Positions 101 to 49,599 of a DNA stretch of 64,000 bases are shown here, in pieces. The stretch covers positions 614,739-678,738 of the forward strand of contig JAGNLM010000001.1 of assembly GCA_017999615.1 (NCBI GenBank), read 5' to 3'. The first letter of the stretch is position 1. Each line of letters starts with the position of its first letter. The notes below the pieces were generated by a model. That model had not been told where the DNA came from. It did no database searches and was given only the letters and a program-made list of their open reading frames with translations. Source of the DNA: Gammaproteobacteria bacterium. GTDB lineage: Bacteria; Pseudomonadota; Gammaproteobacteria; JAABTG01. The translations under genes and the position numbers were made by a program.

Positions 101-919
101 GTGAGCGATAGAGAACGAACCCAGAACCTGGCCGTCTTCTGCGATTTCGAGAACGTGGCACTCGGCGTGCGCGACGCCAAGTACGCGAAGTTCGACATGC
201 AGAAGGTGCTCGAACGCCTGCTCCTGAAGGGCAGCATCGTCGTGAAGAAGGCCTACTGCGACTGGGAGCGGTACAAGGAGTTCAAGGCCTCGATGCACGA
301 GGCGTCCTTCGAGCTTATCGAGATCCCGCACGTGCGCATGTCGGGCAAGAACTCCGCCGACATCCGGCTCGTGGTGGACGCGCTCGACCTCTGCTACACG
401 AAATCCCACGTCGACACGTTCGTCATCATCAGCGGGGATTCGGATTTCTCGCCCCTGGTCAGCAAGCTGCGGGAGAACAACAAGGCGGTCATCGGCGTGG
501 GGGTGAAGAAGTCCACCTCCGACCTGCTCATCGCCAACTGCGACGAGTTCATCTATTACGACGACCTGGTGCGCGAGAGCGAGAAGCAGCGCAGGACGCG
601 TAAGAAACCCGTGGCGAAGGCCGCGCCCACCGAGCCGGCCCCGGTCCCCAGCGAGGAGGACAAGCAGCAGCAGGCGCTCGACCTGGTCATGGAGATCGTC
701 GAGTCGCTCTTCGAAGAGCGGGGGGACGAGGAGAAGGTCTGGGGGTCCATGATCAAGCAGACCCTCAAGCGCCGGCGGCCGGGCTTCAACGAGGCCTATC
801 ACGGCTTCCGGACCTTCGGCAAGCTGCTGGAGGAGGCGCAGGCGCGGGGCCTGCTCGGCCTCGAGCTCGACGAGAAGTCCGGGGGCTACATCATCCGGCG
901 CCCCAGTCAGGGCGACTGA
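101..919 (+). CDS. NYN-domain (LabA-like, PIN-fold) protein with C-terminal OST-HTH/LOTUS domain
   Basis: N-terminal motifs LAVFCDFENV ... IISGDSDFSPLV typical of NYN/LabA nucleases; C-terminal VWGSMIKQ..RRPGFNEAYHGFRTFGKLL resembles OST-HTH RNA-binding domain. Confidence 0.6.
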   Translation: MSDRERTQNLAVFCDFENVALGVRDAKYAKFDMQKVLERLLLKGSIVVKKAYCDWERYKEFKASMHEASFELIEIPHVRMSGKNSADIRLVVDALDLCYTKSHVDTFVIISGDSDFSPLVSKLRENNKAVIGVGVKKSTSDLLIANCDEFIYYDDLVRESEKQRRTRKKPVAKAAPTEPAPVPSEEDKQQQALDLVMEIVESLFEERGDEEKVWGSMIKQTLKRRRPGFNEAYHGFRTFGKLLEEAQARGLLGLELDEKSGGYIIRRPSQGD

Positions 920-9317: not shown

Positions 9318-9413
9318 GGCCTGCGGCGGTCCGGGACACCGGGCTACAGAGTCCGTCTCTGGAGCCCGGTTCCGGCGCGGGCGTCAGGCGGCGGCGCGGG
9401 CGTCAGGCGGGAG

Positions 9414-10202
9414 TCAGAGCGGGCCGGAGCCCATCGCTGTGACGTGGAATCCGCTGTCCACGTACACGACGTCTCCGGTCACCCCCGCGGCCAGGTCGGA
9501 GCAGAGGAAGGCCGCGACGTTTCCGACCTCTTCGATCGTGACGTTGCGCCGCAGCGGGGTGTTGCGCTCGCTGTAGTCCAGGAGACGCCGGAAGTCGCTG
9601 ATCCCGGCGGCGGCGAGCGTGCGGATGGGACCCGCGGACACGGCGTTCACCCGGATCCCCTCGGGGCCCAGGTTGTCCGCCATGTAGCGCACCGTCGCCT
9701 CCAGGCTCGCCTTGGCGATCCCCATGACGTTGTAGTGCGGCACGGCGCGTACCGCACCGAGATAGGTCATGGCAACGATCGCGGCCTTGCGCCCGCGCAT
9801 GAGTGGGCGCGCGCCCTTCGCGAGCGCGGCGAGACTGTAGGCGCTGATGTCCTGGGCGGTGCGGAACCCATCGCGGGTCACGGTGTCCAGAAAGTTGCCC
9901 TCGAGCTGCTCCTTTGGCGCGTAGGCGACCGAGTGCACCAGGATGTCGAGTGCGCCCCACTCGCGGCCGAGCCGGTCGAAGAGCGCCTGGATCTCCGCGT
10001 CGCTCGACACATCGCAGGGCAGGCACAGGTTGGAGCCGACCTCCGGCGCCAGGCTCTCGACCCGGTCCTTCAGCTTGTCGTTCTGGTAGGTGAACGCCAG
10101 GGTGGCGCCCTCACGGTGCATCGCCTGCGCGATCCCCCAGGCGATGGAGCGGTTGCTCGCGAGTCCGACGATCAGGCCGCGTTTCCCTTCGAGAAAACCC
10201 AT
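9414..10202 (-). CDS. fabI: enoyl-[acyl-carrier-protein] reductase (NADH) FabI
   Basis: [23 protein letters not shown] Rossmann N-terminus and catalytic Y-x6-K region of FabI short-chain dehydrogenase/reductase family enzymes; start set at MGFLEGK. Confidence 0.9.
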
Positions 10203-10273
10203 GGCGTTAGCCCCCGAGTGTGTGAGCATGCCGGCGAGTTATAATCGGTCGGCCCCCCAAAGGCAAACCTGCT

Positions 10274-12474
10274 TGGCGCCTCGTTCGCGCAGCTTTTTCG
10301 CTCTCTCCCCGCGGTGCCTGCGCCTGCTGGCGGGAGTGTGTTCCGCTGCCCTCGCGGGGTGCGGACCGCAGCCCTGGAACGATCCCTACCCGCGGGCACA
10401 GGCCGGCGGAAACGTCCTTTTCAGCTCCTTCTCCGAGCGCCCGAAGCACCTGGACCCGGTGCGCTCGTACAGCGAGAACGAATACGCGTTCATCGGCCAG
10501 ATCTACGAGCCGCCCCTCCAGTACCACTACCTCAAGCGCCCGTATCAACTGGTGCCCCTCACGGCCGCGGCCATGCCCGAGCCGGTCTATCGGGACGCGC
10601 AGGGGCGCACGCTTGCCCCGGACGCGCCGGCCGCGGCGGTCGCGCTCTCCGTGTACGAGGTGCGGATCCAGCCCGGGATCCTCTATCAGCCGCACCCCGC
10701 CTTCGCGCGTGACGAGGAGGGAAGGGCGCTGTACCTCGACCTGCCGCCCGGGGCGCTCGATCGGGTGCGCGGGTTGGGCGACTTTCCACGCACCGGCACG
10801 CGCGAGTTGGTGGCCGAGGACTACGTTCATCAGATCAAGCGCATGGCCCACCCGCGGCTCCACTCTCCGATTGCCGGCGTGATGGGTGAGTACATCGCGG
10901 GCCTCACCGGGTACGGCGAGTCCCTGCGCGCGGCCCTCGCCGGGCGTGAGCAAAGGGCGGGCGAGGGTGCCTTTCTCGATCTGCGGGAGTTTCCGGTCCC
11001 GGGTGCGGAGGTGGTGGATCGCTACACCTTCCGGATCACCGTGCGCGGGAAGTATCCCCAGTTCCTGTACTGGCTGGCGATGCCGTTCTTCGCCCCCATG
11101 CCCTGGGAGGTCGATCGCTTCTACGCGCAGCCCGGAATGGCGGAACGCAACCTCGTGCTGGACTGGTATCCGGTCGGCACGGGCCCCTACATGCTGGTGG
11201 AGAACAACCCGAACCGGCGCATGGTGCTGGTGCGCAACCCGAATTTTCGGGGCGAGCCGTACCCGGGAGAGGGCGAGCCCGAGGACCGGTCTCTCGGCCT
11301 GCTGGAAGACGCCGGCAAGCCCATGCCGTTCATCGAGCGCGCCGTCTACAGCCTGGAGAAGGAGGACATCCCCTATTGGAGCAAGTTCCTCCAGGGGTAC
11401 TACGACGCCTCCGGCATCACCTCCGACAGCTTCGACCAGGCGGTACGTCTCGGCAGCCAGGGCGACCCCGAGGTGACGGAGCGCCTGAGCGGGCAGGGCG
11501 TGCGCCTGGTGACGGCGGTGCGGGTCTCGACCTCGTACACGGGGTTCAACATGCTCGACCCCGTCGTCGGCGGCCACGGCGAGCCCGCGCGCCTCCTGCG
11601 CCGGGCCCTTTCCATCGTTGTCGACTTCGAGGAATTCATCTCCATCTTCGCCAACGGCCGGGGAGTCGCGGCGCAGGGGCCCGTTCCGCCCGGGATCTTC
11701 GGACACCGCGAGGGCAATGCCGGCGTCAACCCTTACGTCTATCTCTGGCGCGACGGCGGGGCCGCGCGCCGGGGTCTCGAGGAGGCGAAGCGGCTGCTGG
11801 CGCAGGCGGGCTTTCCCCACGGCCGCGATCAGGCGACCGGCAAGCCCCTGCTGCTGAATCTCGACACCACGGCCTCGGGCCCCGACGACAAGGCCCGGCT
11901 TGACTGGATGCGCAAGCAGTTCGCGAAGATCGGGGTGCAACTGGCGGTGCGCGCGACCGACTACAACCGGTTCCAGGAGAAGATGCGCAAGGGTACCGCG
12001 CAGATCTACCAGTGGGGATGGAACGCGGATTACCCCGACCCCGAGAATTTCCTCTTCCTGCTCTACGGGCCCAACGGGAAGGTGGAACACGGGGGGGAGA
12101 ATGCCTCCAATTACGCGAGCCCCGAGTTCGACCGCCTGTTCGAGGCGCTCAAGGATCTGGAGGACGGCCCCGAGCGCCAGGCCCTCATCGACCGTGCGGT
12201 GGAGGTCGCGCGCCGCGACGCACCTTGGATGTGGGGGCTGCACCCGAAGGCCTACTCCCTGCACCACGGCTGGTACTCGAACGTGAAGGTCAACCTGATG
12301 GCGAACAACACGCTGAAGTACCGCCGGGTCGACCCGGACCTGAGGGCCCGTCGTCTCGCCGAGTGGAACCGCCCCGTGCTCTGGCCGGTCGTGGCCGGCG
12401 GCGCCGCGGTCCTCCTTTCGCTCGTGCCGGCCATCGCGGGCTACCGGCGTCGCCAGCACCGGGGCGCCCTGTGA
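10274..12474 (+). CDS. ABC transporter substrate-binding protein, family 5 (peptide/opine type; YejA-like), lipoprotein
   Basis: Lipobox LLAGVCSAALAGC, then a long solute-binding family 5 fold; first gene of a four-gene ABC operon with overlapping stop/start codons. The ORF extends upstream into fabI, so I chose the TTG at 10274; the start is uncertain. Confidence 0.7.
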
Positions 12475-13448: not shown

Positions 13449-14866
13449 TTGCGCCGGTCGTCCTCTGGACCGATGCCCTGATCTTCACCCTCGTCGGTGT
13501 GGCGCTGGTCTTCGGTCTGCACGCGCGACGCCGTGAGCACCTGCGCGAGCCCTGGCGGCGCGTGGCGCGCAGCCCCAAGGGGGTCGCCGCGGGGACGGTG
13601 CTCGCAGCCTTCGTCGCCGTCGGCCTGCTGGACTCGCTGCACTTCCACCCACGGCTCGACGGGGCGGAGGAGGGGGGCAGCGCCGAGCACTACTCGACGG
13701 AGGTCGTGAGCGTCTTCGACCTTCTCGTCTGGCCCCTGCGCGAGCGGGTCGAGAAGACCTACTCCGCACCGTTCGGGACCCACGCCTATGCGAAGGAGAC
13801 CCTCGACCTCGGGGGGGGACGGCAGGCGCGGGAGTACCCCCGGTTGGTCCACGGCGGGGCGCATCTGAGCGACCCGGGCAGGAGGGGGGCGGACATCGCG
13901 CTCCGGACCCTCGCGGGACTCGGTGCGAGCATCGCCCTCTGGCTGGCCCTGGTGGCCCTCTTCGTCGCGGTTCGGACAGCCCGGCGAGGAGATCGGTTCG
14001 GGCCCCTCTGGCGGGCCCTCTGGGCCGGGCATTGGCAGTGGCCCTGGCGCGCGTTCCTGGCGACCGCGGGGGTACTGCTCACCCTGGTGACCCTGGGTGT
14101 CGCCCTTGCGGGCGCCTACCACGTTCTCGGCACCGACAAGGTGGGTCAGGACGTCCTGTACCAGACCCTGAAGAGCGTTCGCACCGGGCTCGTCATCGGC
14201 ACGGTCTCGACGCTCGTGATGCTCCCCCTCGCCATCGCCCTCGGGATCTCGGCCGGATACTTCCGGGGGCTCGTCGACGACGCGGTGCAGTATCTCTACA
14301 CCACGCTGAACTCGATACCGGGGGTGTTGCTGATCGCGGCGGCGGTCCTGATGTTGCAGGTCTACATGGCCAACCACCCCGACGACTTCGAGAGCCTTGC
14401 CGAGCGTGCAGACCTGCGACTGCTGTTCCTCAGCATCATCCTGGGGGTGACCAGTTGGACGGGCCTCGCCCGGTTGCTGCGCGCCGAGACGCTCAAGCTG
14501 AGCCAGGTGGAGTTCGTGCTGGCGGCGCAGGCCCTCGGTGTGGCGAGCGGACGCATCCTGTCGCGCCACATCCTGCCCAACGTGATGCACATCGTCCTCA
14601 TCACGGTGGTGCTCGACTTCAGCGGGCTCGTCCTGGCCGAGGCCGTGCTGTCCTACGTGAGCATCGGCGTCGACCCGACCACCATCAGCTGGGGCAACAT
14701 GATCAACAGCGCACGCCTGGAGCTCGCCCGGGAGCCGGTCGTCTGGTGGTCCCTCGCGGCGGCCTTCGTCTTCATGTTCTCCCTGGTGCTCTCCGCCAAC
14801 CTCTTCGCCGACGTGGTGCGCGACGCCTTCGACCCGCGCCTGCGGGGCAGCGAGCGTCCCGCGTGA
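13445..14866 (+). CDS. ABC transporter permease (DppC/OppC/YejE-like) with extended N-terminal region
   Basis: GTG start overlapping the previous stop; C-terminal region with the EAA-like loop of OppC-family permeases; about 473 aa. Confidence 0.75.
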   Translation: MIAPVVLWTDALIFTLVGVALVFGLHARRREHLREPWRRVARSPKGVAAGTVLAAFVAVGLLDSLHFHPRLDGAEEGGSAEHYSTEVVSVFDLLVWPLRERVEKTYSAPFGTHAYAKETLDLGGGRQAREYPRLVHGGAHLSDPGRRGADIALRTLAGLGASIALWLALVALFVAVRTARRGDRFGPLWRALWAGHWQWPWRAFLATAGVLLTLVTLGVALAGAYHVLGTDKVGQDVLYQTLKSVRTGLVIGTVSTLVMLPLAIALGISAGYFRGLVDDAVQYLYTTLNSIPGVLLIAAAVLMLQVYMANHPDDFESLAERADLRLLFLSIILGVTSWTGLARLLRAETLKLSQVEFVLAAQALGVASGRILSRHILPNVMHIVLITVVLDFSGLVLAEAVLSYVSIGVDPTTISWGNMINSARLELAREPVVWWSLAAAFVFMFSLVLSANLFADVVRDAFDPRLRGSERPA

Positions 14867-16890
14867 CCGCCTCCGCGCAGGCCCTCCTCGAGGTCCGTGG
14901 CCTGCGGGTGTCGCTGAGCGTGCCGGGCGGGACGGTGCGCGCGGTCGACGGCGTGGACCTGACGGTGATGCCCGGGGAGACGCACGCGATCCTCGGGGAG
15001 TCGGGGTGCGGGAAGTCCATGACGGCGCTCTCGATCCTGCGTTTGCTGCCGGTGGCCGGGCGGGTCGTGGACGGCAGCGTACGGCTCGACGGGACCGACC
15101 TGCTGCGCCTGCCCGAGCACGCCATGCGCGCCGTTCGGGGCGGGCGCATCGCCATGATCTTTCAGGAGCCTCAGTCCTCGCTGAACCCGGTGCTGACCGT
15201 GGGCGACCAGATCGCCGAGGGCGTGCGCCGGCACCGGGGACTGTCGCGCCGGGCGGCGCTGCGTCGGGCCGTGGAGCTGCTGGAGGCGGTCGGCATCCCG
15301 GACCCTTCCCGGCGGGTGAGCGAGTACCCGCACCAGCTCTCCGGCGGCATGAAGCAGCGAGTGATGATCGCCAGCGCCCTGGCCGGTGAGCCGGACCTCC
15401 TGATCGCCGACGAGCCGACCACCGCGCTCGACGTCACCATTCAGGCCCAGGTGCTGGAACTGCTGGAGCGGCTGCGCCGCGAACGGGGAATGGCGGTCCT
15501 GCTGATCACGCACGACCTGGGGGTCGTGGCGGAGTCGGCGCAGCGGGTGGCGGTCATGTACGCCGGACAGGTGGTCGAGGAGGGTGCGACGGCCAGCCTC
15601 TTCGCCCGACCCCTGCACCCGTACACGCGGAAACTCTTCGCGGCCCTGCCTGCCGTGGGAAAACGGGGCGGAGCGCTCGAGGTCATCCCGGGGACGGTGC
15701 CGTCGTTGACCGAGGACGCCCCGGGTTGTCGCTTCGCCCCGCGCTGCGAGCAGGCGTGGGCGCGTTGTCGCGCCGCGGCGCCCGGCTGGCACCCGCTCGG
15801 GGAGGGGCAAGGGGTGCGCTGCCATCTGTACGCGGAAGGCCGGGACGCGGCGCCCGGCCTGCCTTCCGGCCCCGCCGTGGCCCGGACCTCCATGGCCGTT
15901 CCCGAGGAGGGGACCCCGGCACCCCTGCTGAGGATCCAGGGGCTGCAGGTGCATTTTCCCATCCGCCGCGGGCTCCTGCAGCGGGTCGTCGCGCAGGTGC
16001 GCGCCGTCGACGGGGTGGACCTGGACCTTGCGGCGGGGCGCACGCTCGCCCTGGTGGGGGAGTCGGGCTGTGGGAAGACCACAGTCGGCCACGCGATCCT
16101 GCAGTTTCGGCGCCCGACCGCGGGCTCGGTACGCTTCGACGGCGAGGAGTTGACCCACCTCTCCGGCCCGGCCCTGAGACGCCGCCGGCGGGAACTGCAG
16201 ATCGTCTTCCAGGACCCCTACGCCTCGATGAACCCCCGCATGCTGGTGGGGGACATCGTGGTGGAGGGGATGCTTGCCCAGGGCACGCTGCCGGACCGGC
16301 CTGCACGACGGAGCCGGGTGGCAGAGTTGCTGGCGCAGGTGGGACTCGGCCCCGGGGCCACGGACCGTTACCCCCACGAGTTCTCGGGCGGTCAGCGCCA
16401 GCGCATCGCGATCGCCCGCGCCCTGGCCGTGGAGCCGAGGCTGGTGGTGTGCGACGAGCCGACGAGCGCGCTCGACGTGTCGGTGCAGGCACAGATCCTG
16501 AATCTGCTTCGGAGCCTGCAGGACCGCCTGGGGCTGGCCTACCTGTTCATCACCCACAACCTGGCGGTCGTGGAATATCTCGCCCACGAGGTCGCGGTGA
16601 TGTATCTGGGCCGGATCGTGGAGCGAGGTCCGGTGGGCGCGGTGCTTCGCGGCCCCGCCCATCCCTACACTCGGGCGCTGCTCTCAGCGGTGCCGGTCCC
16701 CGACCCGACGAGCGGGCGCGCGGTGATCCACCTGGAGGGCGAGCTGCCGTCTCCTTCCCATCCGCCCCGGGGCTGCCACTTCCACCCCCGCTGCCCTCAG
16801 GCCGTGGACGTGTGCCGTGAGACCTATCCGGAGACGGTCGAGGTCGGTGCCGGCCACCGGGTGGCCTGCCACCTGTACCCTTCGTCGTAA
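14863..16890 (+). CDS. ABC transporter ATP-binding protein with two fused ATPase domains (YejF-like)
   Basis: Two Walker A sites (GESGCGKS and GESGCGKTT) and two LSGG signature motifs ([16 protein letters not shown]) plus C-terminal oligopeptide-ATPase extensions; GTG start overlaps the upstream stop. Confidence 0.85.
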
Positions 16891-16922
16891 CGGGAAGAAG
16901 CAGGGCGCATCGCGCCCGACGC

Positions 16923-18236
16923 TCAGGGGCGCGCGAGGGTCTCGCTGGTCTTGCCGAGCCGGGACACCAGCGTCTTCACGAAGGCCCGCAGGAATCGGAG
17001 TTGGGCCCCGGCGGAGACCTGTTCCACGTGGCTCGCGCCGAGCCGGAGGGCGGAGACGTCGTTCAGGGCGACGATGTTGGCGCTGCGGGGCACCTTTCCG
17101 AAGTAGCCCATCTCTCCGAAGCAGTCTCCGGCAGCGAGCGAGCTCAGAACCCGGGACCCCTTCTTCACCATGACGTCACCCGACACGATGATGTAGAAAA
17201 AATCCTCGATCGCGCCCTCGCTCACGATCCGGTCACCGCCGGTGAAACGGTGGCCGCTGGCGGCACGCACCACTTCCCACAGCTCCGCGTCGGAGAATTC
17301 GGAGAAGAACTCCAGCTTGCGGGCGCTCTCGAACCGCTCCTGCTCTTCGACGTGGGCCTCGACGCCGTCCAGGTGGTCGAAGGCCTGCGAGAGGTCGGCC
17401 GCCATCTCGTTGCCCATCGCGTAACGCTGGGCGCGGTCCCGCGCCAGCGCCTTCATGACGATGGCCTCGAGCTCCGGGGGGATGTCCGCGCGCAGGGTGC
17501 GCACGGGCGGTGGGGCGTCGTGGACGATGCGGTAGATGAGCCTCGAGAGGTTCTCCGCCTGGAAGGGCGTGCGCCCGGCGAGGAGTTCGTAGATCACGAC
17601 GCCGAGCGAGTAGAGGTCCGTCTGGTGGGTCAGCTCCGCTTCCTGGGCCTGTTCGGGAGACATGTACCGCGGTGACCCGACCATCCCCATGACCTGCGTG
17701 GTGTCCGAGTGCAGCTTGCGGGCGATGCCGAAGTCCGCGATCTTCACGTCGCCGTTGGGGGTCAGCAGGATGTTGCTCGACTTGATATCCCGGTGGATGA
17801 CCCCCGCGCGGTGCGCGTAGTCCAACGCACGCGCACACTTGAACGCGATTTCCACCACGCGCCGCAGCGGCAGGAGGGAGTCCGCCTGGCAGTGGTCCTT
17901 GAGCGTCCGCGACCCCTCCACGTACTCCATGACGATGTAGGGCCGCCCGTCCTCCTCGCCGGCATCGTAGACGGACAGGATGTTCGGATGTTTCAACAGG
18001 CCCGCGAGCCGGGCCTCGTTGAAGAAGATCCGGTGCGAGAGCCGGGCGGCCTCGGCGGAAGTGGGGATGCCTCCTACCTTGATGGCGACCGGGCGTTCCG
18101 CAAAGGGGTCATGGCCGAGGTAGACCACGCCCATCGCACCCCGCCCGATGGGCGCGAGCAACTCGTACTTGCCGAGCTTGCGCGGAGCGTCAGCGGGACC
18201 GTGACCGGGCAGGGTTTCGTCTGGACCGGAACTCAT
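16923..18236 (-). CDS. Hanks-type Ser/Thr protein kinase fused to a C-terminal cyclic-nucleotide-binding (CAP-effector) domain
   Basis: Kinase motifs GRGAMGVVY, VAIK, HRDIKSSNILL, DFGIA, SPEQ; C-terminal cNMP-binding signature FGEMGYF...RSANIVA. Confidence 0.8.
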   Translation of the reverse strand: MSSGPDETLPGHGPADAPRKLGKYELLAPIGRGAMGVVYLGHDPFAERPVAIKVGGIPTSAEAARLSHRIFFNEARLAGLLKHPNILSVYDAGEEDGRPYIVMEYVEGSRTLKDHCQADSLLPLRRVVEIAFKCARALDYAHRAGVIHRDIKSSNILLTPNGDVKIADFGIARKLHSDTTQVMGMVGSPRYMSPEQAQEAELTHQTDLYSLGVVIYELLAGRTPFQAENLSRLIYRIVHDAPPPVRTLRADIPPELEAIVMKALARDRAQRYAMGNEMAADLSQAFDHLDGVEAHVEEQERFESARKLEFFSEFSDAELWEVVRAASGHRFTGGDRIVSEGAIEDFFYIIVSGDVMVKKGSRVLSSLAAGDCFGEMGYFGKVPRSANIVALNDVSALRLGASHVEQVSAGAQLRFLRAFVKTLVSRLGKTSETLARP

Positions 18237-18312: not shown

Positions 18313-20250
18313 TCAACCAGCTCGCGCGACGCGTGTGTCTTCGCGGTAGACGTTCAACTCCTGGCCTGCCCGTACTCCCTGACTCTCCCCGAGCTTGTTC
18401 CAGCGCCGGAGCATCGCCGGGCTGACACCGAAGCGTTGGGAGATCGCCCAGAGCGTCTCGCCGGGTTTCACCTTGTAACGGATCAACTCGGGCGTCGCCG
18501 TCTTCGCCGTCTTCGCTGTCTTCGTGGCCGCGGCGGACGCCTTTCCAGTGTCGGGCTTCGCAGCGCCAGGCTTGGCAGGCGCTACGACACTGGCTACCTG
18601 GGTGGCGGCTGCCTTCTTGCCTGGGGCGGAGGCGGCGGCATCGGGCCTCGTCGCCTTCTCGGGCTCGGCCTTGCCGCCCTTCTGGCCCGCCTCGGTCTTG
18701 TTGGGCGGCCCGCCTGCGCTGGCCACCACGGTGCGATCGTCCTGAACATGGACCGCCAGGGTCTGGCCCGCCTTCACGCCAGTCTTGGACGAGATGCCAT
18801 TCATGCTCGCCAGCGCCTGCGGCGTCACGCCGTAGCGGCGAGCCAGCGAGTAGAGCGTCTCGCCCGGACGGACGACGAACTTCTGGGTGACCGCTGCCGG
18901 CTCGCTCACCCTGAGAGTCGCGGGGGTCTTCCGTCCCCTGTTCTCGTCCTCGCCAGCGGAGCGGGACGCGGGCTGGGCCACGGCCTCGGATGCATCGGCG
19001 ACCAGGACGGCGGCGTTTGCGGTCTTGGCGCCAAGCGGCACGCGGACGACGTTCCCGGGGCGGACCCGGTTGCCGCTCAGCTGGTTCACCTCACGCAACG
19101 TGTCCGGTGTCGTCCCGAAGCGGCTTGCCAACATCGCGAGCGTCTCACCGCGGCGCACCACATGGCGCCTCCAGGGCAGCCGCTCGTGCTCGGGCATCTC
19201 GCTCAGGCGCGCAGAGAAGGAGTCCGCCTTGTGGATCGGCAGTACCAGGTGGTGTGGCCCGTCGGGGTCCGTCGCCCAGCGCGAAAAGCCGGGGTTCAGG
19301 TGGCGCAGGTCCGCCAGCGGAATCCCCGCTGCCGAAGCGGCGACGTTCAGGTCGACGGGACCCTGGAGCCCGACCCGGGTGAGATACGGCTCGTTCGGAA
19401 TGGCGGCGAGCTGCACCCCGTACGCGCGTGGGCTCGCGACGACGCGCGCCAGCCCGAGGAGCCGCGGCACGTAGCTGCGGGTCTCTTCCGGAAGGGACAG
19501 GCTCCAGAAATCGGTCGGCAGCCCCGCCCGCTGGTTCTCCTGGACCGCTCGGGCCACGGCGCCTTCGCCGCAGTTGTACGCGGCGACCGCCAGTTGCCAG
19601 TCGCCACCGAACTGATCGCGCAGGGCCGTCAGATAATCCAGAGCGGCGCGGGTGGAGGCGAGGATGTCGCGACGCCCGTCGTACCACCAGTTCTGCCGCA
19701 AGCCGAAACGCCGCCCCGTCTCCGGGATGAACTGCCAGATCCCGGACGCCCGCGCCGGCGAATACGCGAAGGGCTGGAACGCGCTCTCGACGATGGGGAG
19801 GAGCGCGATCTCGCTCGGCACGCCCCGCGACTCGACCTGTTCGACGATGTAGTGCAGGTAGGGCCGTGCGCGCTGGGCCGTGCGGTCCAGGAAACTCGTA
19901 TTGCGCACGTATCGGTCGATTTCCGCATCGATCGCCGGTTGCTCCGGCGACGGCATGCTGAACCCGCTGCGGATCCGCGCCCACAGGTCGGGGGAATCCT
20001 TGCTGCCGGGCTCCGGTTTGAAGCGGCCACGCGGGGCGCTCCGATACGCCTTTACGTCGGACGCGACCGCGCCTCTGCCCGAGTCGGTCACGGGACGTCC
20101 GTCGCTAGAGGTTACTTGGCCGAAGTCCCACCCTTCCGCATCCGCGCCGAAACCAGAGCGCGCAGGCTGGAGCCCACAGCCGGAAGAGAGCGATACAATA
20201 CCGACCAGAACCCCCGGGACGATCAGGCGCCGGGTCGCTCTTATTGTCAT
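18313..20250 (-). CDS. mltD: membrane-bound lytic murein transglycosylase D (SLT domain plus C-terminal LysM repeats), lipoprotein
   Basis: Lipobox SLSSGCG; SLT catalytic region ...ESAFQPFAYSPARASGIWQF; at least two LysM repeats (YKVKPGETLWAISQRFGV..., RVRPGNVV...) near the C-terminus. Start set at MTIRATRR (20250). Confidence 0.85.
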   Translation of the reverse strand: MTIRATRRLIVPGVLVGIVSLSSGCGLQPARSGFGADAEGWDFGQVTSSDGRPVTDSGRGAVASDVKAYRSAPRGRFKPEPGSKDSPDLWARIRSGFSMPSPEQPAIDAEIDRYVRNTSFLDRTAQRARPYLHYIVEQVESRGVPSEIALLPIVESAFQPFAYSPARASGIWQFIPETGRRFGLRQNWWYDGRRDILASTRAALDYLTALRDQFGGDWQLAVAAYNCGEGAVARAVQENQRAGLPTDFWSLSLPEETRSYVPRLLGLARVVASPRAYGVQLAAIPNEPYLTRVGLQGPVDLNVAASAAGIPLADLRHLNPGFSRWATDPDGPHHLVLPIHKADSFSARLSEMPEHERLPWRRHVVRRGETLAMLASRFGTTPDTLREVNQLSGNRVRPGNVVRVPLGAKTANAAVLVADASEAVAQPASRSAGEDENRGRKTPATLRVSEPAAVTQKFVVRPGETLYSLARRYGVTPQALASMNGISSKTGVKAGQTLAVHVQDDRTVVASAGGPPNKTEAGQKGGKAEPEKATRPDAAASAPGKKAAATQVASVVAPAKPGAAKPDTGKASAAATKTAKTAKTATPELIRYKVKPGETLWAISQRFGVSPAMLRRWNKLGESQGVRAGQELNVYREDTRVARAG

Positions 20251-46972: not shown

Positions 46973-48187
46973 GTGCACCGCGTGAGGAGGCCAGCTTTGC
47001 TGGAGAAGAGAGTCACTCTCAGGCAACTACGCCCGGGCATGTACGTCTCGCGGCTCGACCGCCCGTGGCTCGGGACGCCCTTCCCCCTGCAGGGCTTCCA
47101 GATCCGCGTCGGATCGGACATCGCGGAGCTGCACAAGCACTGCAAATTCGTCTACATCGACGTCGAGCGGGGCCTCGACGCCAAGCCCGAGAAGCTCGAC
47201 ATCCCGCCGCCCACCCTGAGGAGCAAGCCCGACCCGGTGGAGGCCCAGGTCGAGCTCCCGAAGGCCAGGCAGAGCACGGAGCAGGTCTCCAGCGAGCTCA
47301 CGCGGATCTTCGAAGGTGCCAAGTCCGGCGGTCGGGCCATCCAGACCGCCCAGCTCAAGGCGGGCATCACGGGGCTGGTCGACAGCGTCCTGCGCAGCAC
47401 CGACGCCGCACTGCTCCTCGCCCGGCTCAAGCGCAAGGACAACTACACCTACACGCACGTCCTCAGCTGCTCGCTGCTGGCTGTCATTCTCGGCAAACAA
47501 CTCATGCTCGAGAAGGGCGAGCTGCAGAAGCTCGCCCTCGCGGCGTCCCTGTTCGACATCGGCAAGACCCACGTTCCGGACGAGCTGCTCGTGAAGAGCG
47601 GCCCCATGACGGCAGCGGAATTGTCGCTCTTGCGCCGGCACGTCGAATTCGGGGTGAAGGTGCTGAAGGAGACGCGGGACATCGACGAGAGCACCATCAA
47701 CGCGGCCCGCTACCACCACGAGCGTCACGACGGCAGCGGTTACCCCGAAGGACGGGTGGGCAGGGACATCCCGCTCTTCGCGCGCATCGTCGGGCTCGTG
47801 GACACCTACGACGCGATGACCAGCACCCGCGTGTACCGCAGCGCGATGTCCCACGAGAGCGCGATCCGCGAGCTCTACGAGCTGCGCGACAAACACTTCC
47901 AGCCGGAGCTGATCGAACACCTGATCCAGTGTCTCGGAACCTACCCGGCGGGCACGCTCGTGGAGCTGACGACCGGTGAGGTGGCCATCGTGGTGGAGCA
48001 AAACCTGGTCCGCCGGCTGCGCCCCAAGGTCATGGTGATCCTGGACGCCGACAAGCGGCCGCTCGAGCACTTTCCCCAGGTCGATCTCCTCACCGAGTCG
48101 GTCAGCGACCACGGGACACCCGTTGCGATTGCCTCGACGCTCGCCCCCGGAAGCTACGGGGTGGACGCGAGCGAGTACTTCATCTGA
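46973..48187 (+). CDS. HD-GYP domain c-di-GMP phosphodiesterase with N-terminal DUF3391
   Basis: DUF3391-like LRPGMYVSRLDRPWLGTPF; HD motif H....L; canonical HHERHDGSGYP. Confidence 0.8.
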   Translation: MHRVRRPALLEKRVTLRQLRPGMYVSRLDRPWLGTPFPLQGFQIRVGSDIAELHKHCKFVYIDVERGLDAKPEKLDIPPPTLRSKPDPVEAQVELPKARQSTEQVSSELTRIFEGAKSGGRAIQTAQLKAGITGLVDSVLRSTDAALLLARLKRKDNYTYTHVLSCSLLAVILGKQLMLEKGELQKLALAASLFDIGKTHVPDELLVKSGPMTAAELSLLRRHVEFGVKVLKETRDIDESTINAARYHHERHDGSGYPEGRVGRDIPLFARIVGLVDTYDAMTSTRVYRSAMSHESAIRELYELRDKHFQPELIEHLIQCLGTYPAGTLVELTTGEVAIVVEQNLVRRLRPKVMVILDADKRPLEHFPQVDLLTESVSDHGTPVAIASTLAPGSYGVDASEYFI

Positions 48188-48234: not shown

Positions 48235-49599
48235 ATGGCGCTCGATCAGCAACCCCTCGGCCGGCCCCACGAGACGTGCCAGCGCCTTTCGCGCACGGGG
48301 GTGGTCTCCCTGGTCGCGGAGGAGTTGGGCCGCAGCCCGGGCTCGAGCGCCGCGCTCATCCTCCTCGCACTGCGCACCTATCGGGTCATCAACACGACCT
48401 TCGGGTACGGTGCCGGCGAAGAGTTCGTGCAGCAGGTCGGCACCATGCTGCAGGCCCAGTTGCGCCCGGTGGACCGCGTGGCCACGCTGGGCGGCGGAGA
48501 GATCGCGGTCGTCCTGCCGGGGTTGAAGAACCCCGAGCACGCGCTGCTCGCCGTGGCCAAGGTCAGACGCTTGCTGACCGGCAAGTTGAAGGTCGGCACG
48601 GAGCTCTTGGGGATGAATTCGACGCTCGGCGTGGCGGTGTTCCCCGCCCACGCGGGGACCGCCGAAGGCCTGGTGCAGCGCGCCGACGTCGCCCTCGGAA
48701 CGGCGCTCAAGCACGGAAAGCCCTTCGTTCCGGCGACTGCGCTGGAAGGGCAGCCCGACAGCGCACTGCTGCTGGCGCAGGAGCTCGAGGCCGCGATCGC
48801 GGGGAACGACCTCTCGCTGTACTACCAACCGAAGGTGGCGCTGGCCGAGGGCCGCATCTGCGGTGTGGAGGCGCTGAGCCGCTGGCGGAGCCCCACGCGG
48901 GGCTTCGTCTCTCCGGATCGGTTCGTGACGGTCGCCGAGGAGCACGACCTCATCAAGCCGCTCACCCTCTGGTCGCTCAACGTCGCGCTGAAGCACGCGC
49001 GCGACTGGAGCGAGATCTGGCCGGGGGCGAGCGTCGCGGTCAACCTCTCGGCGGCACTCCTGGCGGACCCGGAGATCACCGCGCTCGTCCAGCAGGCGCT
49101 CAACATCTGGGACGTGGTCCCCGACCGCCTCACCCTCGAGGTCACCGAGAGCGCGGTCATGGAGGACCCGGAGCGCAGCCTCGCGACCCTGGGGCGCCTG
49201 CGCGAGGTCGGGGTGGGTCTGGCGATCGATGACTTCGGGACGGGCTACTCGTCGTTCAACTACCTGCGCAAGCTGCCCGTCGACGAGCTGAAGATCGACA
49301 AGTCCTTCGTCCTCGGGATGCTGGGGGACCCGAGCAGCGCCAAGATCGTGAAGGCCGTCGTGGACCTGGGCCACACGTTCGGGCTGAAGATCGTCGCCGA
49401 GGGCGTGGAAGACGCCGACACGGTGCAGGCGCTCACCGAGCTCGGCTGTGATTGCGGACAGGGCTACCACTACGCACGCGCCCTGCCCGCCGAGGAGATG
49501 GCGCAGTGGCTCGTCTCACCCCGCAGCGGACTCATGCGCAGTGCGCCGGCGAGCCCGGAGCGGCTCACTCGATGCCGAGCAGCTCCACGTCGAAGATGA
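48235..49599 (+). CDS. degenerate-GGDEF / EAL domain protein (c-di-GMP phosphodiesterase candidate)
   Basis: N-terminal GGDEF-like fold with the signature degenerated to GGGEI; intact EAL motifs (EALSRW, DDFGTGYSS, KIDKSFV, E..E). Confidence 0.8.
   Translation: MALDQQPLGRPHETCQRLSRTGVVSLVAEELGRSPGSSAALILLALRTYRVINTTFGYGAGEEFVQQVGTMLQAQLRPVDRVATLGGGEIAVVLPGLKNPEHALLAVAKVRRLLTGKLKVGTELLGMNSTLGVAVFPAHAGTAEGLVQRADVALGTALKHGKPFVPATALEGQPDSALLLAQELEAAIAGNDLSLYYQPKVALAEGRICGVEALSRWRSPTRGFVSPDRFVTVAEEHDLIKPLTLWSLNVALKHARDWSEIWPGASVAVNLSAALLADPEITALVQQALNIWDVVPDRLTLEVTESAVMEDPERSLATLGRLREVGVGLAIDDFGTGYSSFNYLRKLPVDELKIDKSFVLGMLGDPSSAKIVKAVVDLGHTFGLKIVAEGVEDADTVQALTELGCDCGQGYHYARALPAEEMAQWLVSPRSGLMRSAPASPERLTRCRAAPRRR

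Follow-up and report, generated by a model that had tools for sequence, protein, structure and literature searches.

A soluble PknB-like protein kinase with a C-terminal cyclic-nucleotide-binding domain, and its link in relatives to a CpdA-like phosphodiesterase gene

In bacteria, cAMP is known to act mainly via CRP-type transcription factors and a few enzymes fused to a cyclic-nucleotide-binding (CNB) domain. Direct control of Ser/Thr phosphorylation by cyclic nucleotides (cNMPs) is a central eukaryotic route. We found no demonstration of such control in bacteria in the openly available full-text literature. Among the bacterial enzyme fusions, the mycobacterial acetyltransferase Pat is controlled allosterically by its attached CNB domain. 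Another characterised fusion with a CNB-controlled enzyme is the CNB-EAL protein Bd1971 from Bdellovibrio (PMC6717892). Furthermore, Kannan et al. (2007; PMC2246266) described an "Other_bacterial" class of CNB domains, which are attached to CheY, rhodanese, kinases or DNA-binding domains and have the phosphate-binding cassette (PBC) consensus GEMALLDGEPRSATVVA. Kinase-CNB fusions have been catalogued in surveys since 2007, and the architecture is common, not rare. A survey of orthologs, which the original prediction had called for, found hundreds of such proteins of about 430 amino acids in metagenome-assembled genomes (MAGs) of gamma- and betaproteobacteria. No functional study, ligand-binding assay or kinase assay of any member was found in the same literature.

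Here we describe a kinase-CNB gene in a 64-kb stretch of gammaproteobacterial DNA (hereafter, the window). The features of the gene and its surroundings are listed in Table 1. The open reading frame starts with ATG and encodes a protein of 437 amino acids. An exact-sequence look-up showed that MBP7711374.1 ("protein kinase" at NCBI) has the same sequence, and the same protein is present on at least 23 metagenome contigs. The window gene thus brings no new architecture; it is an ordinary, already deposited member of a catalogued family. The highest 19-residue Kyte-Doolittle mean in the protein is 1.07 and the AlphaFold2 (AF2) model contains globular elements only (mean pLDDT 84.5, pTM 0.74). 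Thus, the protein has no transmembrane segment, as had been predicted.

Table 1. Features of the kinase-CNB gene and its neighbourhood (window coordinates).
Feature	Position	Strand	Basis or remark
Kinase-CNB fusion gene, complete including stop codon	16923..18236	(-)	ORF, Pfam, exact-sequence look-up
Hanks-type (PknB-like) Ser/Thr kinase domain, residues 24-274	17415..18167	(-)	Pfam Pkinase, PknB similarity, Foldseek
Activation segment, DFG to SPE, residues 168-195	17652..17735	(-)	Translation, PknB alignment
C-lobe end and helical connector into CNB N-terminal helices, residues 275-329	17250..17414	(-)	AF2, alignment
CNB beta-barrel, residues 330-407, including beta2-beta3 glycine G341	17016..17249	(-)	Pfam, PDB sequence matches, AF2
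PBC FGEMGYFGKVPRSANI, residues 373-388	17073..17120	(-)	Translation, alignment, PMC2246266 consensus
Long C-terminal helix (hinge/lid), residues 409-435	16932..17012	(-)	AF2, alignment, translation
MltD-like lytic transglycosylase, SLT and two LysM	18313..20091	(-)	Gene calls and Pfam of L081, identical to window
YejF-like double ABC ATPase	14863..16890	(+)	Convergent; last gene of yejABEF-like transporter operon
Terminator-like hairpin GGGCGC-GAT-GCGCCC and T-rich tail	16893..16917	(-)	5 nt past kinase stop; consensus scan

The original prediction described a complete Hanks-type kinase domain, and all the motifs quoted for it (GRGAMGVVY, VAIK, HRDIKSSNILL, DFGIA and SPEQ) are found in the translation. 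The Pfam model PF00069 (Pkinase) matches residues 24-274 with 178.9 bits against a cut-off of 31.7 (E 1.6e-52). The kinase residues G31/G33/G36, K53, E74, H148-R149-D150, K152, N155, D168-F169-G170, S193-P194-E195 and R271 are all present. We assessed their conservation in 31 relatives, which share 52-84% identity with the window protein. G33, K53, E74, the HRD motif, K152, N155, the first two residues of DFG, T180, SPE, D207 and R271 are invariant in these relatives, and these include the three residues that had been singled out as decisive (VAIK Lys, HRD Asp and DFG Asp). G31 and G36 are not invariant and are kept in at least 90% of the relatives, and G170 is replaced by Ser in one subfamily. 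T180 in the activation segment aligns with T171 of PknB, and residues 176-184 have low pLDDT in the AF2 model, as expected of a mobile loop. The best solved relatives of the domain are PknB, StkP, PknA and PknE (E 2e-49 to 5e-41). When the model was compared with the PDB by Foldseek, the TM-score to PknB was 0.89 (target-normalised) and the top 19 matches were all PknB; only the kinase half was aligned, and none among the matches listed spanned both domains. Judged from its sequence, the kinase is most likely catalytically competent and of the RD type. The top NCBIfam match of the domain was the PASTA kinase model NF033483 (residues 22-300). However, we rejected membership of the PASTA kinase (Stk1/PknB) family because the score of 307 bits is below the cut-off of 450 and the protein has a C-terminal CNB domain instead of a transmembrane segment and PASTA domains.

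The second half of the protein passes the named test on a cNMP-binding model: PF00027 (cNMP_binding) matches residues 330-407 with 57.9 bits against a cut-off of 27.5 (E 1e-15). The reported FGEMGYF...RSANIVA is found in the translation, and the AF2 model places the strands of the domain at residues 327-400. Together, the E-values for the two domains rule out a chance match. Therefore, we regard the gene as real and intact, and as predicted to encode a soluble bacterial protein kinase joined to a cyclic-nucleotide sensor domain. Among the pocket residues, E340-G341, G353, G370-D371-C372, G374-E375, R384 and A386 are invariant in the 31 relatives. Residue 385 is Ser in the window protein and Thr in most relatives, and is Ser, Thr or Gln across the family. 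By the criteria of Kannan et al. (PMC2246266), the protein carries the canonical PBC signature (Gly-Glu ... Arg-Ser/Thr-Ala) and the beta2-beta3 Gly; according to the same study, the PBC Arg and this Gly co-evolve with cAMP binding. Because E375 and R384 are invariant, the pocket is predicted to be competent. It had been suggested that the conserved Arg and Glu be used to predict cAMP, cGMP or an inactive pocket. The residue next to the PBC Arg, Ser or Thr, does not tell cAMP from cGMP.

Other ligands can also be bound by CNB domains whose PBC looks canonical, and many CNB folds of the CRP/FNR superfamily are dimerisation or docking modules. An alternative is that the domain is not a cAMP or cGMP sensor but binds another small molecule, or is a constitutive dimerisation or docking module of an active kinase. 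CNB families that bind something else are on record (PMC2246266), the window ORFs examined contain no cyclase gene, the long C-terminal helix has an invariant face as a dimer interface would have, and a distant DFS-type subfamily has no link to a phosphodiesterase (see below). However, CNB families with non-nucleotide ligands show a non-canonical PBC (PMC2246266), whereas G374-E375, R384-[S/T]-A386 and the beta2-beta3 Gly are kept here, although residue 385 varies. Moreover, in the four lineages that we looked up, a CpdA-like gene adjoins the kinase gene or overlaps it. We consider this alternative unlikely.

We infer that the protein is regulated by a cNMP. In the AF2 model, residues 275-329, which comprise the end of the kinase C-lobe and a short, conserved connector into the N-terminal helices of the CNB domain, have helices at 275-285, 289-306 and 316-325 (pLDDT about 79-95), and A279, L282, F286, L289, F302, L308, F310 and F311 are invariant in the 31 relatives. 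The C-terminal helix of 27 residues has an invariant face made of Q412, F415, F419, L423, R426 and L427, and is, in the model, a candidate for the element that couples the sensor to the kinase. From these features, and from the phosphodiesterase linkage and purifying selection described below, we propose that the protein is probably a PknB-like cytosolic RD kinase, whose activity is under the allosteric control of a 3',5'-cyclic nucleotide (cAMP favoured, cGMP possible) at its single C-terminal CNB domain. Binding of the ligand in the PBC would shift the position of the hinge/lid helix, which is how other CNB domains respond. This movement might be relayed via the rigid connector, the invariant helix face or both, and might alter the docking of the CNB domain on the kinase or the dimerisation of the protein. 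The altered docking or dimerisation would then allow trans-autophosphorylation of T180 and phosphorylation of substrates.

The kinase gene had been described as wedged between a yejF-like gene and mltD, and this is correct: its end is 32 bp from the end of the yejF-like gene, and the co-directional mltD-like gene lies 76 bp before its start. Because three terminator-like sites were seen against 1.6 expected, the hairpin is weak on its own. A scan with the E. coli consensus found no sigma70-like promoter in the gap between mltD and the kinase gene. The absence of a partner phosphatase or FHA gene nearby, also noted originally, was borne out: neither PP2C nor FHA nor a cyclase was found in the Pfam annotation of about 6923-28236 and in ten further ORFs (a few more ORFs past 28 kb were judged by eye only). 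The window ORFs examined contain no phosphodiesterase gene, and tblastn found no second kinase-CNB copy in the window (nothing below E ~1). Genes for c-di-GMP signalling, about 30 kb from the kinase gene, are the only nucleotide-signalling genes found in the ORFs scanned.

The position next to mltD raises the idea that the kinase serves to remodel the cell wall: co-transcribed with the MltD-like gene, it would connect a nucleotide signal to peptidoglycan turnover, in a cytosolic variation on the PASTA-kinase theme. In the window, and likewise in all six related contigs of the clade at 49-85% identity (L085-L091, L034), mltD lies upstream in the same direction. The short gap without a recognised promoter and the PASTA kinase model as the top match of the kinase domain are in line with this idea. 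However, mltD-methyltransferase-rnhA-dnaQ is a housekeeping block, and the adjacency may therefore be mere synteny; in one relative, a CBS gene separates mltD from the kinase gene. In relatives at about 50% identity, the kinase gene is beside pgi and not mltD. When the window neighbours were compared by tblastn with 60 genome loci, the mltD context was found in L034 only. Thus, the relatives at about 50% identity belong to a different subfamily with a different context. In addition, the promoter scan applied an E. coli consensus to a genome of 69% GC, and the PASTA score is below its cut-off for a protein that has neither PASTA domains nor a transmembrane segment. We think that a cell-wall output is rather improbable. 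It should be mentioned that this idea concerns the target of the kinase and is compatible with gating by a cNMP.

We also considered whether the protein acts in defence against phages, as a PD-T4-6-like kinase or as an effector that a nucleotide activates in the manner of Pycsar or CBASS, in place of housekeeping signalling. Defence effectors that respond to cyclic nucleotides can contain CNB domains, PADLOC models for PD-T4-6 gave up to about 292 bits and that for mad6 gave 244 bits, and the NCBIfam MADS6 model gave 163 bits. However, the PADLOC matches, which come without cut-offs, are confined to the generic kinase domain (about residues 22-300) and are no better than those of PknB models, and the MADS6 cut-off is 460 bits. 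There is no adjoining cyclase gene, and the chromosomal position between housekeeping genes is constant across lineages down to 49% identity. The GC content of the gene is like that of its flanks (0.66-0.69), and no mobile-element genes were found near it in the Pfam annotation of about 6.9-28.2 kb. Therefore, we rejected PD-T4-6 or MADS membership as generic kinase-domain similarity in conserved housekeeping synteny, and a role in defence seems very improbable.

The gene neighbourhoods of the relatives bear on both the ligand and the history of the window gene. We looked up four lineages, at 85, 64, 59 and 58% identity. In all of them, the kinase gene is directly followed by a CpdA-like Metallophos gene for a protein of 253-266 amino acids, with a 4-bp overlap or a gap of 13-46 bp. 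This phosphodiesterase linkage is a new finding of our analysis. All four products match Pfam Metallophos, and their database relatives are annotated as CpdA or Icc. The motifs SDTH, TGD, GNHD, HHHP and GHVH in the partner sequence are, we assume, the metal-binding set of class III phosphodiesterases. The best NCBIfam model of all four is NF008359, 3',5'-cyclic-AMP phosphodiesterase (E 6e-61 to 2e-50). However, the scores of 206, 216, 195 and 172 bits are below the equivalog cut-off of 225, and a 2',3'-cNMP phosphodiesterase model is the second-best match; the four are therefore candidate cAMP phosphodiesterases. Among the matches listed, the kinase-linked copies form a clade of their own at 52-100% identity, compared with 38-48% for generic CpdA/Icc. 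Downstream of the kinase gene, three of the four lineages also have a gene for a conserved polytopic membrane protein (membrane protein X). In relatives, the yejF-like gene and the kinase gene are separated by the cpdA-like gene, the gene for membrane protein X or both. The relatives at about 50% identity, the DFS-type subfamily, showed no phosphodiesterase link; Inmirania thermothiophila has a kinase-CNB protein of this subtype.

Neither a displaced cpdA-like gene nor one for membrane protein X was found in the window by tblastn (nothing below E ~1), and none of the best 120 database matches of CpdA-like proteins lies on the 744-kb source contig (744,101 bp; one contig of the MAG). The best explanation of these gene orders is that the ancestral cluster of the clade was probably mltD, kinase-CNB, cpdA-like phosphodiesterase and membrane protein X, and that the last two genes were deleted in the window lineage. 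In the ancestral cluster, the phosphodiesterase would have terminated the signal locally. Thus, the description of the kinase gene as isolated is true of the window, but the isolation is a derived state because the relatives carry the CpdA-like gene directly downstream. The loss of both partners from the whole window, together with the lack of a CpdA-like match on the source contig, could mean that the kinase is a decaying orphan or a pseudokinase. However, neither the reading frame nor any motif is disrupted, and the identical protein recurs on the metagenome contigs mentioned above. In the comparison with the partner-bearing relative at 85% identity, dN/dS was 0.12 (kinase) and 0.10 (CNB domain); only this pair was used because the strong GC3 bias leaves dS saturated in the farther relatives (about 0.7-1.2). 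Purifying selection is strong on both halves, even though the phosphodiesterase and membrane protein X have been lost. A decaying orphan or a pseudokinase is therefore extremely improbable.

Considering the family as a whole, we tentatively propose that it may be a bacterial counterpart of PKA and PKG that evolved independently and works as a single chain, in which a PknB-type kinase is switched on directly by cAMP or cGMP at a C-terminal CNB domain without a pseudosubstrate. Ancestrally, it would have been a self-contained three-gene module of sensor kinase, dedicated CpdA-like phosphodiesterase and polytopic membrane protein. The family, which is widespread among Gamma- and Betaproteobacteria from the environment, shows every sequence hallmark of a cNMP-controlled kinase. 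Because the kinase is tied to a cAMP-phosphodiesterase-like gene in the clade of the window gene, the idea can be tested by simple biochemistry. If it is true, this would be the first demonstrated bacterial route from a cyclic mononucleotide directly to Ser/Thr phosphorylation, and the window copy would show the kinase working without a dedicated phosphodiesterase. The main interest of the window gene is that it is a natural variant, which has lost its partners and is still under strong constraint.

In comparison with known systems, the kinase domain is most like those of PknB and PknA from M. tuberculosis and StkP from S. pneumoniae (about 36-38% identity to PknB; E 2e-49 to 1e-42), with which it shares the RD type and, for PknB, the aligned activation-loop Thr. 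K23 and D91, invariant in the 31 relatives, are presumably the counterparts of the N-lobe pair R10/D76 of PknB. In contrast to PknB-type kinases, the protein has no transmembrane helix or extracellular PASTA domains, and its CNB sensor is cytosolic and C-terminal. The nearest solved relatives of this CNB domain by sequence are PKG and PKA-R, followed by MlotiK1, and CRP-type regulators are weaker. The label "CAP-type", used in the original prediction, is thus imprecise, although a CNB domain is indeed fused to the kinase: unlike CRP/FNR factors, the protein has no HTH by Pfam and ends about 30 residues past the barrel, and its match to the CRP model, at 23.6 bits, is far from the cut-off of 266. 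Pat (Rv0998/MSMEG_5458) and Bd1971 are similar in that a single CNB domain is attached to a soluble enzyme, and both gave weak sequence matches (Pat model, E 2.6e-4; Bd1971, E 1e-4). However, the output here is a Hanks kinase and not GNAT or EAL, and the CNB domain is C-terminal. The window PBC, GEMGYFGKVPRSANIVA, resembles the consensus of the "Other_bacterial" class, which is a catalogue entry that gives neither a mechanism nor a ligand and says nothing on gene context or on the structure of subfamilies. The partner in relatives is, like E. coli CpdA and class III cNMP phosphodiesterases, a Metallophos protein of equal length with NF008359 as its best model; it differs from E. coli CpdA in its sub-cut-off scores (172-216 bits) and separate clade, and its gene is missing from the window. 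Finally, PKG and PKA (R and C) also combine a Ser/Thr kinase with canonical CNB domains, and the PBC signature is common to both. The reminiscence of these kinases that had been pointed out holds only as a functional likeness. The catalytic domain is PknB-like and not AGC, and PKG entries rank lower (E about 1e-40) although their kinase and CNB stretches are summed. The order is reversed, with the kinase N-terminal, and there is one CNB domain instead of two to four. Only about 12 residues lead from the kinase to the first CNB helix. Between the last kinase helix (up to residue 285) and the first CNB helix (from 289), a pseudosubstrate or autoinhibitory segment would not fit, and the PKA/PKG mechanism therefore cannot apply to this protein. 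Most simply, the kinase-CNB protein is an independent fusion relative to PKA and PKG.

The kinase-CNB protein (N-terminal Hanks kinase, C-terminal cyclic-nucleotide-binding (CNB) domain) contains every motif quoted in the original prediction. In Pfam, Pkinase (residues 24-274, E 1.6e-52) and cNMP_binding (residues 330-407, E 1e-15) both lie far over the gathering score. No TM segment was found in the protein, in which the top 19-residue hydropathy mean is 1.07. Thus, a fusion without a TM segment, as first read from the sequence, is confirmed: it is real, and a chance match is ruled out. The GC content of the gene (0.66-0.69) is the same as that of its flanks. Within the same 90% cluster, a length of 403 aa is frequent among public gene calls, and one such sequence occurs on 177 contigs. 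A start at M35 would give this length and would remove strand β1 and most of the Gly-rich loop. The 403-aa calls look like an artefact of start-codon choice; the complete form is that of 437 aa, which NCBI also has.

Among solved structures, the kinase half is closest to the PknB, StkP, PknA and PknE kinase domains (E 2e-49 to 5e-41), and the Foldseek superposition of the model on PknB gives a target-normalised TM of 0.89. We aligned 31 members of the family, which share 52-84% identity with the window protein. Invariant residues are K53, E74, H148-R149-D150, K152, N155, D168-F169, S193-P194-E195, D207 and R271, so that the key kinase residues (K53, HRD Asp D150 and DFG Asp D168) are all retained. 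Activation-loop T180, which pairs with PknB T171 in our mapping from the alignments, is also invariant. Because the fold is PknB-like and the catalytic residues and T180 are invariant, the kinase half is predicted to be a competent RD kinase, which should depend on activation-loop phosphorylation.

In the AF2 model (mean pLDDT 84.5, pTM 0.74), three residues separate the last kinase helix (275-285) from helix 289-306, and helix 316-325 comes next. The CNB barrel has eight strands (327-400) and is followed by a short helix and a 27-residue C-terminal helix (409-435). The phosphate-binding cassette (PBC) is FGEMGYFGKVPRSANI. In the alignment, G374-E375, R384, A386 and the β2-β3 glycine G341 are invariant; Kannan et al. 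tie the PBC Gly-Glu, Arg and Ala and the β2-β3 Gly to canonical nucleotide-binding CNB domains (PMC2246266). The original prediction asked whether the conserved Arg and Glu of the cassette point to cAMP, cGMP or an inactive pocket. Both residues are present, but the residue following the Arg (Ser in the window protein, Thr in most relatives) does not discriminate between the two. The label "CAP-type" is imprecise because the CNB sequence matches PKG and PKA-R CNB domains first, then MlotiK1, and CRP-type regulators more weakly, and because no HTH domain was found by Pfam or NCBIfam. Connector residues A279, L282, F286, L289, F302, L308, F310 and F311 are invariant among the 31 members, as are Q412, F415, F419, L423, R426 and L427, which form one face of the C-terminal helix; both sets are likely coupling elements.

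As predicted, the gene lies between mltD-like and yejF-like genes: in the window, dnaQ, rnhA and a methyltransferase gene on the opposite strand are followed by mltD-like, kinase-CNB and a convergent yejABEF-like transporter. The position beside mltD is kept in all five close relatives (see table). A kinase output in peptidoglycan remodelling with MltD is improbable: the adjacency may be plain synteny, although this reading is itself compatible with cNMP gating. An anti-phage kinase is much less probable still, given that the PADLOC matches are generic to the kinase domain and the gene context is housekeeping synteny. Two c-di-GMP signalling genes, approximately 30 kb from the kinase, were the sole further nucleotide-second-messenger genes seen in the window. 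The NYN protein at 101-919 was confirmed, as were ClpP/ClpX in the apparent tig-clpP-clpX-lon block beside it; Lon was partly confirmed, and tig was read by eye.

Coordinates of kinase-CNB genes and associated features (L, loci of relatives with their own coordinates; P, relative proteins with identity to the window protein)
Locus	Position	Feature	Context
Window	16923..18236 (-)	kinase-CNB, ATG start, 437 aa	downstream neither Metallophos gene nor membrane protein X
Window	18134-18236	first 34 codons	lost with start at M35
Window	16893-16917	terminator-like GC-rich hairpin, T-rich tail	32-bp spacer, kinase stop to convergent yejF-like stop
Window	101-919 (+)	NYN-domain (PIN-like RNase) protein	immediately upstream of apparent tig-clpP-clpX-lon block
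Window	46973-48187 (+)	DUF3391 + HD-GYP-type HD_5 protein	c-di-GMP signalling
Window	48235-49599 (+)	GGDEF-EAL protein	c-di-GMP signalling; adjoins HD_5 gene
L085-L087 (P0003, 85%)		Metallophos gene, then membrane protein X	4-bp overlap with kinase
L085	6676-7821	membrane protein X	downstream of kinase/cpdA-like genes
L089 (P0011, 64%)		Metallophos gene, then membrane protein X	4-bp overlap with kinase
L089	5001-5957	membrane protein X	downstream of kinase/cpdA-like genes
L088 (P0010, 63%)	9355-10530	membrane protein X only	downstream of kinase
L090 (P0018, 59%)		Metallophos gene	13-bp gap after kinase
L090	10377-12691	second Hanks kinase with DUF8082; Tll0287-like + HAMP protein	behind cpdA-like gene
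L091 (P0021, 58%)		Metallophos gene	46-bp gap after kinase
L091	7313-7906	CBS gene	between mltD and kinase
L007	7334-7870	CBS gene (also at six other distant loci, seven in all)	upstream, or nearby on opposite strand
L001	1991-3547; 7384-8652	paired kinase-CNB paralogues	
L005	4902-6257; 8001-9311	paired kinase-CNB paralogues	

The Metallophos copies (253-266 aa) all have 3',5'-cyclic-AMP phosphodiesterase as their top NCBIfam model (E 6e-61 to 2e-50). Because they score 172-216 bits, under the equivalog cut-off of 225 bits, we term them CpdA-like; their database relatives carry CpdA/Icc annotation. Contigs of 24,275 bp and 9,413 bp, lengths that recur among both the kinase-CNB and the CpdA-like database matches, suggest the same linkage in two further lineages. 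Membrane protein X, from three lineages, is polytopic (318-391 aa, about five TM-like segments, 57-68% identity between lineages) and had no match in Pfam and NCBIfam searches. The cluster at L090 suggests a larger signalling cluster in its lineage.

Neither gene was found anywhere in the 64-kb window, and the kinase is isolated there, as originally described. The hairpin, which may be a shared terminator of the kinase and yejF-like genes, marks the site where relatives hold approximately 2 kb more DNA. Because the five relatives carry a CpdA-like gene, membrane protein X or both at this site and the window does not, the isolation of the kinase is a derived state, through loss of approximately 2 kb. 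Comparison with the 85% relative gives dN/dS values of 0.12 (kinase) and 0.10 (CNB domain). These values contradict a decaying orphan or pseudokinase, which is hardly credible, and such constraint after partner loss argues that the sensor is still functional.

We propose, as the best-supported reading, that kinase-CNB is probably a PknB-like cytosolic kinase that responds to cAMP or cGMP, with the C-terminal CNB domain as its gate. T180 autophosphorylation would activate the kinase, and the dedicated phosphodiesterase of the ancestral operon would end the signal. A CNB fold that takes another ligand, or serves only for dimerisation, is unlikely in view of the canonical, invariant PBC and the phosphodiesterase linkage.

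A second subfamily (~50-54% identity) has DFS in place of DFG, carries two extra residues in the activation loop, and occupies a different gene context from the window's clade. In 14 of 40 distant loci (among L001-L022), two paralogous kinase-CNB genes lie on the same strand, 2-4 kb apart; a phosphoglucose isomerase gene usually accompanies them, either in between or alongside. The two paralogues each have DFS and a canonical PBC. They could be a heterodimeric pair, or reflect a tie to sugar-phosphate metabolism. No phosphodiesterase linked to kinase-CNB was found at the DFS-subfamily loci. Since the subfamilies differ in this way, context points to no common substrate. A small CBS-domain protein, often close to the DFS-type genes, adjoins kinase-CNB in both subfamilies. 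CBS domains bind adenosyl ligands; therefore, this neighbour may be an energy-state link.

The window protein, encoded on a 744-kb contig, was already deposited (MBP7711374.1, "MAG: protein kinase [Gammaproteobacteria bacterium]"), and at least 23 metagenome contigs encode an identical protein. The database search gave more than 120 full-length proteins (426-449 aa, same two Pfam domains, 52-98% identity). A scan with a single genome for each species located full-length relatives at approximately 40 loci, which belong to gammaproteobacterial and betaproteobacterial MAGs and to one contig binned as Thermodesulfovibrionales. When 1.84 billion cluster representatives were searched with the CNB domain alone, the best 150 matches included approximately 35 proteins of ~406-462 aa that carry the CNB domain at ~275-440. 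Surveys mention bacterial CNB-kinase fusions (PMC2246266; PMC11032199). Kinase-CNB thus belongs to the Hanks kinase and CNB superfamilies and to a catalogued bacterial fusion family, and its architecture is already known. No biochemical or genetic study of this family was found in the literature covered, most subscription journals being outside that coverage. The most useful outcome is the module of kinase, phosphodiesterase and membrane protein found in relatives, which offers a concrete, testable hypothesis for cNMP-dependent protein phosphorylation in bacteria.

The original prediction also noted a resemblance to cGMP/cAMP-dependent kinases. The likeness to PKG and PKA holds in the predicted principle of action. 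However, kinase-CNB stands outside that family: its kinase is not AGC, the domain order is reversed, the CNB domain is single, and there is no pseudosubstrate, for which the space between the kinase and CNB domains is too small.
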